From Oscillospiraceae bacterium (lineage in GTDB: Bacteria; Bacillota; Clostridia; Oscillospirales; QAMX01), in contig SVLQ01000008.1 of assembly GCA_015067825.1 (NCBI GenBank), forward strand, positions 777 through 64,776: a stretch of 64,000 nucleotides of DNA, given 5' to 3'. Shown one piece after another: positions 3,496 to 45,545 of the stretch (its first letter is position 1; each line of letters starts with the position of its first letter). The notes under the pieces were generated by a model. The model was given only the letters and a program-made list of their open reading frames with translations, ran no database searches and was not told where the DNA came from. The position numbers and the translations under genes are program-made.

Positions 3496-3540
3496 AGTCA
3501 AAAGGGTAGACAAAGCGCAGAGTCCTTAGGGACTCTGCGC

Positions 3541-3690
3541 AGCGAAATAAATCCCTTACGGGATTTGTGAAATGCACTTCGTGCGTGAAATTCGCTTACA
3601 GCGAGTGAAATGCCTGCGGGCGTGAGGGGATTTATTTCATTTCCCGTCGAGCAGGGGGAGATATTTCACATTTTGCCAAGCCGAGAAAGA
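3541..3690. repeat. GTGAAAT-plus-hairpin array, copy 1 (partly degenerate)
   Basis: GTGAAAT at 3567, 3585 and 3605, with variant GTGAGGG at 3622. Spacers gcac-ttc-gtgc, tcgct-tac-agcga and gcc-tgcg-ggc are flush hairpins. Inverse heptamers ATTTCAT at 3634 and ATTTCAC at 3663. Confidence 0.6.
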
Positions 3691-3725
3691 AGGACGAAGA
3701 ATCTTAACCATTCTTCGTCCTTTTC
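3691..3725 (+). terminator. Intrinsic terminator
   Basis: aggacgaagaat-cttaacc-attcttcgtcct hairpin followed by TTTT. Confidence 0.65.
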
Positions 3726-3871: not shown

Positions 3872-4048
3872 CAACAATGTCTTCGGGGCAGGGTGAAACT
3901 CCCGACCGGCGGTATAGTCCGCGAGCGCTTTTGGCGCAGGATTTGGTGCGATTCCAAAACCGACAGTATAGTCTGGATGAAAGAAGACAAAACAGGCGTT
4001 TTCGTCGGTTTTTGCACCCGGAGCATCGTTGTTCCGGGTGTTTTTTGC
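3872..4048 (+). promoter_or_regulatory. FMN riboswitch (RFN element) with terminator expression platform
   Basis: Near-consensus RFN core: cttcggggcagggtgaaactcccgaccggcggtatagtccgcgagc ... ggatttggtgcgattccaaaaccgacagtatagtctggatgaaagaag. It is followed by the hairpin cacccggagcatcgttgttccgggtg plus TTTTTT (about 4012-4047), directly upstream of ribU. Confidence 0.9.
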
Positions 4049-4069: not shown

Positions 4070-4729
4070 ATGCAAACCCAAAACCGAACCAAACAACTCG
4101 CCGTGCTCGCCATGCTTTCGGCGCTTGCCTATGTGGCCGTCGTCGTCTGCCGCATCCCCGTGGTGCTGTTTTTGAAATACGAACCCAAAGACGTCATCAT
4201 TACCCTCGGCGGCTTCCTCTACGGCCCGCTGGCGGCGGTCGCCGTCTCGGTCGTGACCGCCTTCGTCGAAATGTTCACGATCAGCGATACCGGCATCTGG
4301 GGGCTGCTGATGAATATTCTTTCCAGCTGTGCCTTCGCCGGAACGGCGTCGCTGATCTACCATCGCCGCCGCACGCTCTTAGGCGCGGCGATCGCGCTGA
4401 TCGCGGGAATTGCTGCCACTACGGCAATCATGCTCCTCTGGAACTACCTCGTCACACCGCTTTATATGAAGGTCCCGCGCGAAACGGTCGTCCAGCTGCT
4501 GATCCCGGCATTCCTGCCCTTTAACCTCCTCAAGGGAACGCTGAACGCCGCGCTTTTGATGCTTCTTTACCAGCCGGTCGTCACGGCGCTGCGCCGTGCC
4601 CGTCTGGTTCCGCCGTCGTCGGCGAAAAAAGCCGGCGTTGTCCGCACCTACGTTTCGGTCGCGGTCATCGCGCTGGTCGTGGTCGGCGGATGCGTGCTGG
4701 CCGTGCTTGCGATGCGCGGCGTGATCTGA
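4070..4729 (+). CDS. ribU: riboflavin transporter, ECF-type S component
   Basis: ORF 3776-4729 trimmed to ATG 4070, because the upstream part is the riboswitch. Multi-TM protein typical of RibU-family S components. FMN riboswitch lies immediately upstream. Confidence 0.8.
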   Translation: MQTQNRTKQLAVLAMLSALAYVAVVVCRIPVVLFLKYEPKDVIITLGGFLYGPLAAVAVSVVTAFVEMFTISDTGIWGLLMNILSSCAFAGTASLIYHRRRTLLGAAIALIAGIAATTAIMLLWNYLVTPLYMKVPRETVVQLLIPAFLPFNLLKGTLNAALLMLLYQPVVTALRRARLVPPSSAKKAGVVRTYVSVAVIALVVVGGCVLAVLAMRGVI

Positions 4730-25319: not shown

Positions 25320-25822
25320 GCGCCATCATGGAGCAGCGATGATGCGGGAGGTTGCCACTCATCGAGTGGGTTTTTCCGCGGAGTATGTCCGAAAGAGCAT
25401 GGCCGATCCAAATAGGATCTGCGATGTTTCTTTGCAATCGGGCGGTTGAGAATTCTTCTCTTTAGGATCCAGTGTGCGCAGAGAGCGTCTGAAAAGACTT
25501 CCGTCAAGCGGGGAAGTGTGCCGGTTTGCGGTATAACCCCTGTGGAAGTGTGCTTGGGAGCTGTCTGTGCAGTCTGACCAGCCGGTTTGCAAGACGTAGA
25601 TCGCTCAGGCGATCTGCATCGTTGAAACCGGTTATTCTTATGTCAGGGCGTGAAACGCTCGGATGGGTAGTTAAGAATCGAGCAGGGTTTTCTCCGTACG
25701 CAGCCTGAGACATTGGCCTCAGACAGATCACCGGGCGGGGGCCGCGAACGCGGTCATCTGGATGGCGACAAAAAATAAGGTAGTCCGCCCGGACGTACGA
25801 CAAACTAGGAGGAAGTACAAAC
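25320..25822 (+). other. Long structured 5' leader or unassigned ncRNA upstream of the S10 operon
   Basis: About 500 nt without a credible ORF between a consensus promoter and rpsJ. Many local hairpins, including an early terminator-like hairpin ccactc-atc-gagtgg plus G TTTTT at 25355-25375. Confidence 0.4.
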
Positions 25823-43939: not shown

Positions 43940-44929
43940 ATGACAACCGAACACCCCTTTTCCATCGGCGGTGTCTCCATCCCCGGATCGTTCGGCCTTG
44001 CGCCGATGGCCGGTGTGGGTGACTATGCGTTCCGCGCGATCTGCCGTGAGCACGGTGCGGCCTACACGGTTTCGGAAATGGTGAGCGCGAAGGCGCTCTG
44101 CTACGGCGATAAAAAAACGGCGCAGCTTCTCTACCTCGGCGATTCCGAGTGCCCTGCCGCCGTGCAGATCTTCGGCAGCGAGCCGGAGTTCATGGCCGAG
44201 GGCGGCAAGCTCGCCTTGGCGATGTCGGGTGCGCAGATTTTGGATATCAACATGGGCTGTCCGGCGGGCAAGATCGTGCGCTCGGGCGAAGGCTCGGCGC
44301 TGATGAAAGATCCGCAGCTCGCCTCGCGCTGCATCGAAGCGGTCGCGGCGGCTGTCAACGTGCCGGTGACGGTCAAATTCCGCGCCGGATGGGACGAAAC
44401 GCAGCGGAATGCTGTGGAATTCGCCAAAATGGCGGCTGCTTCCGGCGCATCCGCCCTCTGTATCCACGGCCGCACGCGTGCGCAGATGTACGCGGGCACG
44501 GCCGACCGCGCGCTGATGCGGGCGGTGGTCGAAGCGGTGGAGATCCCGGTGATGGTCAACGGCGACGTCACCGACGGCGCGAGCGGCGCGGCGATCTTAC
44601 GCGAGACCGGCGCGCAATTTGCCATGATCGGCCGCGGCGCACTCGGCAATCCGTGGGTATTTGCCGCGTGCGAGGCCGCAGTTTCCGGTTCCGAATTTGC
44701 CCAGCCCGATCTGAAAACGCGGCTGGAAACGGCCAAACGCCAGGCCCAACTCGCCGCAAACCAAAAGGGCGAGGGTGTCGCCTGCCGCGAGCTGCGCGCA
44801 CATATGATGTATTATCTGCGGGGGATCCGCTCGGCGGCGAAATACCGCGTGCGCGCCACCCAAGTGCGCACACTTGACGAGCTGGCCGAACTGGTTGCCG
44901 AGGTTTTGGCGGCGGCCGAAGCGGAATAG
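43940..44929 (+). CDS. dusB: tRNA-dihydrouridine synthase
   Basis: 329 aa. The Dus family pattern includes LAPMAGVGD, DINMGCP and HGRT. Confidence 0.88.
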   Translation: MTTEHPFSIGGVSIPGSFGLAPMAGVGDYAFRAICREHGAAYTVSEMVSAKALCYGDKKTAQLLYLGDSECPAAVQIFGSEPEFMAEGGKLALAMSGAQILDINMGCPAGKIVRSGEGSALMKDPQLASRCIEAVAAAVNVPVTVKFRAGWDETQRNAVEFAKMAAASGASALCIHGRTRAQMYAGTADRALMRAVVEAVEIPVMVNGDVTDGASGAAILRETGAQFAMIGRGALGNPWVFAACEAAVSGSEFAQPDLKTRLETAKRQAQLAANQKGEGVACRELRAHMMYYLRGIRSAAKYRVRATQVRTLDELAELVAEVLAAAEAE

Positions 44930-45001: not shown

Positions 45002-45076
<75 letters not shown>

Positions 45077-45077
45077 G

Positions 45078-45109
45078 AAAAAAGCACTTGCTCACGCAAG
45101 TGCTTTTTT
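45078..45109 (+). terminator. Intrinsic terminator after tRNA-Gly
   Basis: gcacttgc-tcac-gcaagtgc hairpin flanked by an A-run and TTTTTT. Confidence 0.8.
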
Positions 45110-45292
45110 CAGTGAAATTCGCCTTCGGCGAGTGAAATATGGCTTCGCCATGTGAAATAGCGACGCTGTGAAATATTTGCTGCGCAAATGTGAAGAGGCG
45201 AATTTCATTTCACATTGCGACCAAAGGGAGCAATATTTCACAATTCACGAAGTGAATGATTTCACATTCGGCAACACCGAATATTTCACTAA
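45109..45292. repeat. GTGAAAT/ATTTCAC heptamer-plus-hairpin array, copy 2 (complete)
   Basis: GTGAAAT at 45112, 45132, 45152 and 45168 (GTGAAG at 45190). ATTTCAC at 45207, 45235, 45259 and 45283. Every inter-heptamer spacer is a flush self-complementary hairpin. Confidence 0.8.
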
Positions 45293-45374: not shown

Positions 45375-45412
45375 CAATAAAACAACAGACCGGCGAACGA
45401 TTACAGCCAAAG

Positions 45413-45545
45413 GCTCCCTTGTGTAAAGGGAGCTGTCAGCGAAGCTGACTGAGGGATTGTTTTTATGAGAAATTTAGTTCTTACAATCCCTTCGTCACGG
45501 CTACGCCGCGCCACCTCCCTTTACACAAGGGAGGCTTTTTCTTTG
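45413..45545. repeat. Nested hairpin/inverted-repeat module ending in a terminator-like hairpin
   Basis: gctccctt-gtgta-aagggagc (45413-45433) and its inverse cctccctt-tacac-aagggagg (45514-45534, followed by cttttt). These enclose the hairpins gtcagc-gaa-gctgac and agggattgt…acaatccct. Confidence 0.6.

Follow-up and report, generated by a model that had tools for sequence, protein, structure and literature searches.

The window analyzed here is a 64,000-nucleotide stretch of contig SVLQ01000008.1 (assembly GCA_015067825.1, Oscillospiraceae bacterium), and the feature under study is an element of repeated heptamers and small hairpins lying just behind a tRNA-Gly gene. A tRNA-dihydrouridine synthase (Dus) gene (43940–44929) is located immediately upstream of the tRNA gene and the element. 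The best named relatives of the Dus protein come from a "Clostridia bacterium" (81% identity) and from Oscillospiraceae (57%), and the organism belongs to an uncultured Clostridia lineage. In the sequence-only reading, the element was described as a ladder of GTGAAAT heptamers followed by ATTTCAC heptamers that matched no RNA family. The last statement is wrong, because Rfam family RF01706 (Gut-1) recognizes both the left half of the element and a second copy elsewhere in the window. Membership in RF01706 corresponds to a score at or above the gathering score of 50 bits over the full model. The left half (45110–45179, plus strand) scored 67.1 bits over model positions 1–77, and the second copy (3540–3616, plus strand) scored 74.9 bits over the same positions; the right half (45202–45291, minus strand) scored 47.7 bits, just below the gathering score. 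The family signature was also found, namely three consecutive hairpins with covarying stems split by GUGAAAU, the stems differing in sequence yet pairing. The "ladder" of the window is a composite of approximately 180 bases formed by two convergent (back-to-back) Gut-1 units.

Gut-1 was described from 43 human-gut metagenome sequences as three hairpins separated by GUGAAAU, with the sole comment that it was absent from every sequenced organism (Weinberg et al. 2010, PMC2864571). It was labeled a stand-alone small RNA (sRNA) of the "human gut only", its published model ends after the fourth heptamer, and the published alignment shows an upstream consensus of YYYYY-CA-RYnAAAU, as well as one contig that holds four copies in tandem (PMC2864571). 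In the paper library searched, the family is mentioned nowhere else. The units considered here share with Gut-1 the three GUGAAAU-separated hairpins and the preceding T-run and CA, but they differ in several respects. They usually form half of a composite of about 180 bp with an inverse array and a covarying closing helix (P1); they adjoin tRNA terminators and are linked to a four-helix-bundle gene; they also occur in metagenome-assembled genomes (MAGs) from ruminant, horse, and chicken guts; and their loop and wobble-pair statistics question the annotated strand. The composite is described neither by the source paper nor by the Rfam model. Gut-1 has stood in Rfam since 2010 without an organism, context, or function. 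The present analysis adds hosts (uncultured Clostridia from human and herbivore guts), an anatomy (the inverse partner array and the covarying closing helix), a fixed address after tRNA-operon terminators, and a linked protein family, PF05635, itself of unknown function. An orphan motif thereby becomes a hypothesis open to testing, in which a nucleic-acid element has a protein partner, and both the strand and the extent annotated for the Rfam family may need to be revisited.

Anatomy of the two copies in the window

The features of both copies are listed in Table 1. All eight heptamer positions read from the window element at the outset are exact in the sequence. Across the window, GTGAAAT or ATTTCAC occurs at 17 sites, against 8.35 expected, and 12 of these fall inside the two elements (the window element and 3540–3669). 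The spacers had been described as flush, perfect small hairpins. The hairpins themselves were confirmed, but two details required correction: the spacer at 45242–45258 is not flush, since its end bases (a and g) are unpaired, and the spacer at 45214–45234 has a stem of 5 bp and a loop of 11 nt. The equivalent of the former reads aat...att in other copies. Arrays of clustered regularly interspaced short palindromic repeats (CRISPR) have direct repeats of roughly 23–50 bp, unique non-palindromic spacers, and cas genes or a leader. The exclusion of a CRISPR array by the sequence-only reading was borne out by the 7-nt repeat, the palindromic spacers of 9–21 nt, and the occurrence of arrays in both orientations.

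Table 1. Positions of the tRNA gene, the window element, and the second copy, with their component hairpins and helices (window coordinates)
Feature	Position	Strand	Remarks
tRNA-Gly (anticodon CCC)	45002..45076	+	ARAGORN; Rfam tRNA 66.4 bits; element follows 3' CCA
Bidirectional intrinsic terminator GAAAAAAGCACTTGC-tcac-GCAAGTGCTTTTTTC	45077..45110	.	Perfect 15-bp palindrome including A-run and T-run
Left half	45110..45179	+	Full-length Gut-1 (RF01706) match; GTGAAAT at 45112, 45132, 45152, 45168
P1 5' strand TGAAATTCGCCT	45113..45124	+	Pairs with 45196-45207, 12/12 bases complementary (inverted repeat)
H1 tcgcc-ttc-ggcga	45119..45131	+	5' arm doubles as one P1 strand
H2 atggc-ttc-gccat	45139..45151	+	Within Gut-1 alignment
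H3 agc-gac-gct	45159..45167	+	Within Gut-1 alignment
H4 atttgc-tgc-gcaaat	45175..45189	+	Read from sequence
Center	45190..45206	+	Degenerate fifth heptamer GTGAAG, H1 3'-arm copy, ATTTC (aggcgaatttc)
P1 3' strand AGGCGAATTTCA	45196..45207	+	Partner of 45113-45124
Right half	45202..45291	-	Gut-1-like array; ATTTCAC (plus-strand reading) at 45207, 45235, 45259, 45283
H5 attgc-(gaccaaaggga)-gcaat	45214..45234	+	Position with conserved tandem G.A/A.G mismatches in wider family
H6 attcac-gaa-gtgaat	45242..45258	+	Flanking a and g unpaired in window copy
H7 attcgg-caaca-ccgaat	45266..45282	+	Read from sequence
Flanking hairpin of second copy, gcgcagagtcc-ttag-ggactctgcgc	3515..3540	.	Terminator-like on minus strand in scan
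Second copy, left half	3540..3616	+	GCGAAAT at 3542; GTGAAAT at 3567, 3585, 3605
Second copy, P1 3' strand GGGATTTATTTC	3627-3638	+	Pairs with 3544-3555, 0/12 mismatches
Second copy, right half (decayed)	to 3669	+	ATTTCCC at 3639, single ATTTCAC at 3663

The second copy, which the sequence-only reading had also claimed, is real, as its Gut-1 score shows, although its right half has decayed. Hairpins similar to the one at its left flank were found at four of the loci collected below (L011, L030, L039, and L113). The second copy, L112, and L113 have alike left-flank hairpins and downstream flanks but different arm types, and they look syntenic, lying upstream of the region that in the window contains a flavin mononucleotide (FMN) riboswitch. 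This riboswitch (3875–3992, 116.4 bits) is located 200 nt downstream of the second copy.

Conserved structure and strand signals

Scanning for the pattern, with each species represented by one genome, gave at least 120 loci. Among the 120 listed, 63 carry true hairpin-spaced arrays, the remainder being unrelated simple tandem repeats. Among the matches listed, the array hosts were nearly all MAGs from human, ruminant, horse, and chicken guts, labeled Clostridia, Eubacteriales, Oscillospiraceae, Acutalibacteraceae, Ruminococcaceae, or Christensenellaceae, with a few Akkermansia. Among the 185 distinct spacers in the related loci, 145 were perfect flush hairpins and 28 had one non-Watson–Crick pair, whereas only 1.3% of shuffled spacers were perfect flush hairpins. 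The flush-hairpin rule is thus kept in other copies, and these counts, with the covariation described below, support the original idea that a constant heptamer combined with freely covarying, self-complementary spacers reflects selection on structure. The inverse heptamers are kept less generally: 85 non-identical composites carry them, whereas solo arrays have no inverse partner and yet retain equally flush hairpins.

The same polar architecture was found in all 85 composites, of which 46 have four heptamers on each side. On the left, an upstream hairpin or terminator is followed by CA and then by (A/G)YGAAAT-H1-GTGAAAT-H2-GTGAAAT-H3-GTGAAAT-H4; the middle consists of GTGrG, a copy of the H1 3' arm, and ATTTC, in a layout identical in all parsed composites; and the right half reads ATTTCAC-H5-ATTTCAC-H6-ATTTCAC-H7-ATTTCAC. 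The left hairpins are 9–15 nt long and the right hairpins are longer (17–21 nt). When 20 composite loci were scanned with Rfam, the left half was called in all of them (54–80 bits) and the opposite-strand right half in six (50.1–53.4 bits).

Several variants of this architecture were observed. Seven solo arrays (L006, L008, L017, L042, L091, L098, and L103) end in a conserved, purine-rich, Shine–Dalgarno-like GTTRAGGARG and one more hairpin, at the position that GTGrGG and the P1 strand occupy in composites. Four composites are arranged in tandem in L153 (2937–3855), and composites flank one or a few small genes as direct repeats in L161 (~1770–2600), L073 (4297–5183), and L037 (207–3124). The genes between these repeats include a four-helix-bundle gene in L161 and an open reading frame with a leucine-rich repeat domain in L073, and the layout resembles cassettes. 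Contigs binned as Akkermansia or Akkermansiaceae (L004 2314–3301, L010 6985–7082, and L072 3842–3894) carry GTGAAAT arrays with flush hairpins of a different style; L004 has three arrays in 1 kb, and the array in L010 begins 7 nt past a XerC/D-like recombinase gene. A generic scan of the collected loci for any heptamer plus flush hairpin repeated three times found no other heptamer family.

The sequence-only reading did not include P1, a helix formed between GAAAT plus the 5' arm of H1 and a complementary segment of the center. The arm occurs in six forms (AAATCC, AAATCCC, AAATCCAC, TCGCC, TTGCCC, and TCGTTCC), and the center changes in step: the arm part of the helix contained 294 Watson–Crick cells versus 9 mismatched ones, compared with 165 and 107, respectively, when the center was paired with arms of other types. 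Across 32 composites, 96.6% of the P1 cells were paired and 7 of the 12 pairs changed on both sides. In the same 32-sequence alignment, every one of the seven pairs in H6, and likewise in H7, covaried, and five pairs of H1 changed on both sides in the aligned composites. For the structure consisting of P1, H5, H6, and H7, none of 500 shuffles and no slid register came near the observed values. Because P1 and H1 share one strand, the two are alternatives. Alignment of whole composites with MAFFT misaligned H2, H3, and the third heptamer, which were analyzed instead with an anchor-based parse in Python.

The heptamer was invariant while the stems drifted across MAGs labeled Oscillospiraceae, Acutalibacteraceae, Christensenellaceae, and Akkermansia, which points to recognition in trans. 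Heptamer changes occur in both halves together, as in L138 and L171, where ATGAAAT accompanies ATTTCAT. A variant composite located after a Dus gene in L133 (~3560–3700) has GTGATAT on the left, ATATCAC on the right, flush hairpins, and no tRNA. Gut-1 membership, the anatomy of the composite, the covariation of the hairpins and P1, and the invariance of the heptamer are established.

The sequence-only reading had proposed that the four GTGAAAT heptamers pair, nested, with the four ATTTCAC heptamers on one transcript or extruded strand, giving four 7-bp helices separated by perfect four-way junctions. We compared energy models of this ladder, of the local hairpins only, and of P1 (RNA, plus strand, 46 composites). 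The ladder had the lowest energy of the three in 45 of the 46, with a mean of −47.2 kcal/mol against −38.1 for P1 and −32.1 for the local hairpins; the mean minimum free energy of the same composites was −63.7 kcal/mol. Minimum-free-energy folds of the window element contain heptamer rungs (z-scores of −5.5 and −6.7), the 4+4 arrangement of heptamers is frequent, the two halves switch heptamer type together (L133 and L138/L171), and isolated cognate compensations occur between left (L1–L4) and right (R1–R4) heptamers, in locus L068 (L4 GTGAAGT with R1 ACTTCAC) and locus L206 (L1 ACGAAAT with R4 ATTTCGC). However, the pattern of variation does not follow the rungs. Four or five of the seven pairs per rung never vary, leaving almost no covariation to count, and no positional covariation supports the ladder. 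The first heptamer is mostly ACGAAAT, ATGAAAT, or GCGAAAT while the last remains ATTTCAC, and the outer rung has two mismatched positions in 18 of 32 copies (ACGAAAT versus ATTTCAC). Pairing is no better in cognate than in non-cognate rungs, L4–R1 being mismatched in 6 of 10 informative cells. Uncompensated variants, namely ATATCAC at R1 or R2 in loci L080, L160, and L206–L210, and GTGATAT at L2 but ATATCAC at R1 in L207, outnumber the two isolated compensations. In addition, P1 competes for the first heptamer and covaries, solo arrays retain flush hairpins without a partner array, and a heptamer constrained by pairing alone should drift as the stems do, whereas it is constant in the sampled MAG lineages. 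The ladder thus appears to fold well computationally without being what evolution conserves, and it is not supported by these comparisons; as the functional state it is improbable.

The loops differ strongly between the two strands. On the strand that reads ATTTCAC, 120 of 176 triloops were GNA and 73 of 114 tetraloops were GNNA (40 of them GNRA), closed by C–G, whereas only 4 GNA triloops and no GNNA tetraloops were found on the strand that reads GTGAAAT. UUCG tetraloops, which might have indicated RNA on the GUGAAAU strand, were rejected as such an indication, since only 1 of 114 tetraloops was UNCG. C-GNA-G and C-GNNA-G loops follow the rule for very stable DNA mini-hairpins (PMC13037366, PMC3201870). 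As in the mini-hairpins d(GCGNAGC) and d(GCGNNAGC), C–G-closed GNA and GNNA loops dominate on the ATTTCAC strand, but those are isolated model hairpins, and the likeness tells which strand folds best rather than what the element does (PMC13037366, PMC3201870). In the right halves, the plus strand contained 13 G·T pairs and 3 A·C pairs, and the tandem G·A/A·G pairs of H5 are conserved, which on the opposite strand would be pyrimidine mismatches; the left-half stems are essentially perfect and so carry no strand information. Both the bias toward G·T over A·C and the conserved tandem G·A argue for a function as a single strand, and because a cruciform in duplex DNA would not fix the orientation of the loops relative to the heptamer, the loops argue in the same direction.

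Genomic address and the linked gene

Intrinsic terminators were defined as a GC-rich hairpin followed by a U-run of at least five. The terminator scan did not call the palindrome behind the tRNA-Gly gene, the terminator status of which was read from the sequence, and it called none of the internal hairpins of the element. In total, 63 arrays start no more than 75 nt from the 3' end of a tRNA gene in the same orientation, with 22 anticodons represented, and the junction is always tRNA-CCA, bidirectional terminator, CA, and first heptamer. Terminal tRNAs without arrays have identical-type terminators abutting the CCA, indicating that the terminator is native and the array was added after it. A second class of copies lies after a non-tRNA hairpin. 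The order of Dus and tRNA-Gly(CCC) is kept in L129, a relative with 68% identity, and 21 contigs all end just past the tRNA terminator. Contigs of the same species are identical, and more distant orthologous contigs (68% Dus identity) break right after the tRNA terminator. An apparent presence/absence polymorphism at L127 was rejected, because the divergence arises only where the contig ends in Illumina adapter; this public contig diverges inside the element after the second ATTTCAC and terminates in adapter sequence (agatcggaagagcacacgtctgaactc, 4350–4373), and its end is probably an assembly chimera at the repeat. We also rejected an integrase att site or tRNA-targeting island: in 41 loci, the best downstream repeat of the 18-nt tRNA tail within approximately 2 kb had 4–9 mismatches, and an integrase adjoins only two loci.

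The location between a terminator and the next promoter would suit a factor-independent backup terminator or RNA-end protector, in which GC hairpins with AUUUCAC units act as weak terminators or exonuclease blocks for polymerase that has run past the tRNA terminator or comes in antisense, with one half for each direction. On the ATTTCAC strand, each hairpin is directly trailed by A-UUU, the C–G-closed GNA and GNRA loops are fast-folding, and, judging from the layout, the half transcribed last in each direction would be in the ATTTCAC orientation. We nonetheless regard this explanation as quite unlikely, given that the internal hairpins escaped the terminator scan because their U-tracts are only 3 nt long and that a terminator of this kind needs neither the invariant CAC/GTG nor P1.

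The only recurrent neighbor is a gene for a protein of approximately 115 amino acids belonging to Pfam family PF05635 (23S_rRNA_IVP, "four helix bundle protein"; E = 1e-24). It lies 15–120 nt downstream of many composites, at L009, L045, L067, L080, L064, L029, L095, and L058 and among the L134–L213 loci. In a reciprocal test on 60 metagenomic loci, chosen for homologues with 74–92% identity and enough upstream sequence, 43 had three or more exact heptamers in the 450 nt preceding the gene. The array was usually a full composite ending 50–54 nt before the ATG, and at these loci a sigma-70-like promoter was often present, its −35 element abutting the last ATTTCAC, with a tRNA gene upstream. The order of tRNA, terminator, composite, promoter, and PF05635 gene is exemplified by L148 (1772–2345). 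The only solved relative in the family, 2RLD, is an uncharacterized protein with five chains in the entry. The strand asymmetry of the loops, the adjacency to tRNA terminators, and the linkage to PF05635 genes are established. A further, rather doubtful possibility suggested by the linkage is that Gut-1 arrays are the cis nucleic-acid partner of the widespread PF05635 proteins (Avd-like, "23S rRNA intervening sequence"), together forming an RNA– or single-stranded DNA (ssDNA)–protein module at the 3' ends of tRNA operons. The flush hairpins would then juxtapose four or five invariant heptads as a platform for the PF05635 protein, and the inverse array of the composite could mask or unmask this platform through the alternative between the ladder and P1.

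Contiguous, hairpin-free heptad tandem repeats with a GTGAA/TTCAC core, such as four copies of CTTCACT facing four of AGTGAAN, were also seen at L133 (~760–870), L095 (downstream of tRNA-Gly), L023 (972–1093), L031 (686–734), and L042. They adjoin a four-helix-bundle gene in L133, L095, L023, and L031 and follow a tRNA terminator in L133 and L095; those in L042 lie about 60 nt from a Gut-1 array, where no four-helix-bundle gene was found. These repeats may be a hairpin-free relative of the element.

Such repeats bear on the possibility that the heptamers are iteron-like operator or insulator sites in double-stranded DNA, bound by a DNA-binding protein that regulates the adjacent promoter, such as that of the four-helix-bundle gene, or blocks read-through in the manner of omega-repressor heptads. 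In the promoter of the four-helix-bundle gene, the −35 element sits directly against the last ATTTCAC, and the hairpin-free heptads hold the same position, between tRNA terminator and four-helix-bundle gene, in L133, stand beside such a gene in L095, L023, and L031, and lie near a Gut-1 array in L042. The omega-repressor operators of inc18 plasmids are contiguous WATCACW heptads in duplex DNA, arranged directly and inverted, and we take the variant heptamer ATATCAC to match them. Both systems place direct and inverted 7-bp units ahead of promoters, but the units are contiguous in the omega operators and are separated by hairpins here, with strand-specific evidence. The spacing of the heptamers is irregular (16–28 bp start to start), so that helical phasing is not kept, and binding to duplex DNA would leave unexplained the palindromic flush spacers, the loop asymmetry of about 120 to 4, the excess of G·T over A·C, and the tandem G·A pairs. 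This explanation is very improbable.

Proposed function and comparison with known elements

Each rival explanation accounts for part of the data. The reading that we tentatively prefer, with somewhat less than even confidence, is that the element is a single-stranded hairpin scaffold that, at the boundaries of transcription units, would present its repeated heptamers to a conserved trans factor. The acting form would most likely be RNA, arising from terminator read-through or antisense transcription at the ends of tRNA operons. The flush hairpins would fold locally and bring the invariant heptamers side by side, the heptamers would be recognized, as repeated sites, by a conserved factor acting sequence-specifically in trans, and the 12-bp P1 would close the left array into a compact domain. 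The candidate for this factor, and the only one genomically linked, is the downstream PF05635 four-helix-bundle protein. The element may act as a boundary that separates a tRNA unit under very strong transcription from the promoter that follows, through insulation, backup termination, or RNA-end protection, in the manner of repetitive extragenic palindromic (REP) sequences and bacterial interspersed mosaic elements (BIMEs) in enterobacteria.

Several observations weigh against this scaffold. The strand signals conflict for the left half, the Rfam orientation and the terminal G·U pair of P1 (present in 10 of 32 copies) pointing to the GTGAAAT strand and the loops to the ATTTCAC strand. Our scan found no consistently placed promoter for a stand-alone sRNA on either strand, and the gap between the upstream terminator and the array leaves no room for one. 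The PF05635 gene adjoins arrays in 10 of the 120 pattern-selected loci listed, its share among pattern-selected loci being put at only about 16%, and the two copies in the window have neither a four-helix-bundle gene nor a remnant of one nearby.

Alternatively, the element could be a selfish dispersed DNA repeat, similar to miniature inverted-repeat transposable elements (MITEs), REP doublets forming hairpins (REPINs), or attC sites, whose heptamers would bind a transposase or recombinase on folded ssDNA and whose insertion would be targeted just past terminator hairpins. Many copies occur per genome, including at contig ends in one MAG (L084, L087, L088, and L105); near-identical pairs lie 0.7–2.7 kb apart around small genes (L037, L073, and L161); four copies stand in tandem both in L153 and in the published Gut-1 alignment; one element type follows different tRNAs in different genomes; a tyrosine recombinase gene adjoins arrays in L081 and L010; and the loops fit the rule for stable DNA mini-hairpins. 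On the other hand, no transposase or integrase was found among the recurrent neighbors, there is no downstream duplicate of the tRNA 3' end, and a clear target-site duplication was not evident. Within a genome, copies differ greatly in hairpin sequence, and types persist across species with compensatory changes, which looks like purifying selection rather than recent spread; the syntenic-looking copy upstream of the FMN riboswitch region (second copy, L112, and L113) also recurs. Where solo arrays and left halves adjoin a tRNA gene, the strand with the GNA loops is antisense to that gene; if tRNA genes run with replication, this strand would be the leading-strand template and unsuited to a mechanism requiring lagging-strand ssDNA. 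Viral contigs seldom carry arrays, since just 4 of their 120 pattern hits are true arrays, and BLAST gave no match in plasmid or phage collections, so a phage or plasmid origin was rejected. A cargo transposon between arrays was likewise rejected, because the 2.3-kb interior in L087 encodes thiamine genes rather than a transposase. MITEs are characterized by terminal inverted repeats, a target-site duplication, and precise empty sites in related genomes; here, inverse heptamer arrays are present, and the contigs compared were either identical or broken at the element. On balance, we consider a selfish repeat unlikely.

The single-stranded scaffold can also be compared with elements of known type. 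REP sequences, BIMEs, and REPINs are extragenic palindromes of conserved structure, with a short invariant motif of the GTAG type beside the stem, often in inverted pairs; each genome contains many of them, placed at transcription-unit 3' ends, and they are associated with a REP-associated tyrosine transposase (RAYT). The element shares with them the extragenic palindromes, invariant motif, inverted pairs, 3'-end location, and multiple copies. It differs in that only the heptamer is conserved here, whereas the REP hairpin sequence is conserved within a genome, and in that it has no GTAG motif and a multi-hairpin array per unit instead of one palindrome. No gene resembling RAYT or a Y1 transposase was found among the recurrent neighbors in the contig neighborhoods covered. 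Integron attC sites have GTTRRRY/RYYYAAC cores and R''-L''...L'-R' boxes, act as strand-specific folded ssDNA, bound gene cassettes, and are recognized by IntI. A conserved 7-bp core and its inverse likewise flank a region of conserved structure here, and the layouts in L037, L073, and L161 are cassette-like, but the core is GTGAAAT rather than GTTRRRY, each arm has four repeats rather than two, and the element sits after tRNA terminators. An attC site was rejected, since the heptamer is GTGAAAT/ATTTCAC and neither an IntI-like recurrent neighbor nor a cassette array was seen. In the sponge sRNAs CsrB and RsmZ, a short single-stranded motif on or between many hairpins binds several copies of one protein. 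A repeated short motif between hairpins is common to both, but the motif here differs from GGA, and neither a promoter nor a link to CsrA was identified.

Two other structures were noted in the window. An imperfect inverted repeat of approximately 125 nt (45410–45540) lies 120 nt to the right of the element. Its sequence contains ctcccttgtgtaaagggag ... ctccctttacacaagggag as well as a gtcagc-gaa-gctgac hairpin in its interior, with a T-run at the end; its predicted fold has an energy of −74.5 kcal/mol (z = −8.1), and it is present a single time in the window, without an Rfam match. Elsewhere in the window, an S10-Clostridia ribosomal-protein leader was found at 25331–25406 (45.1 bits).

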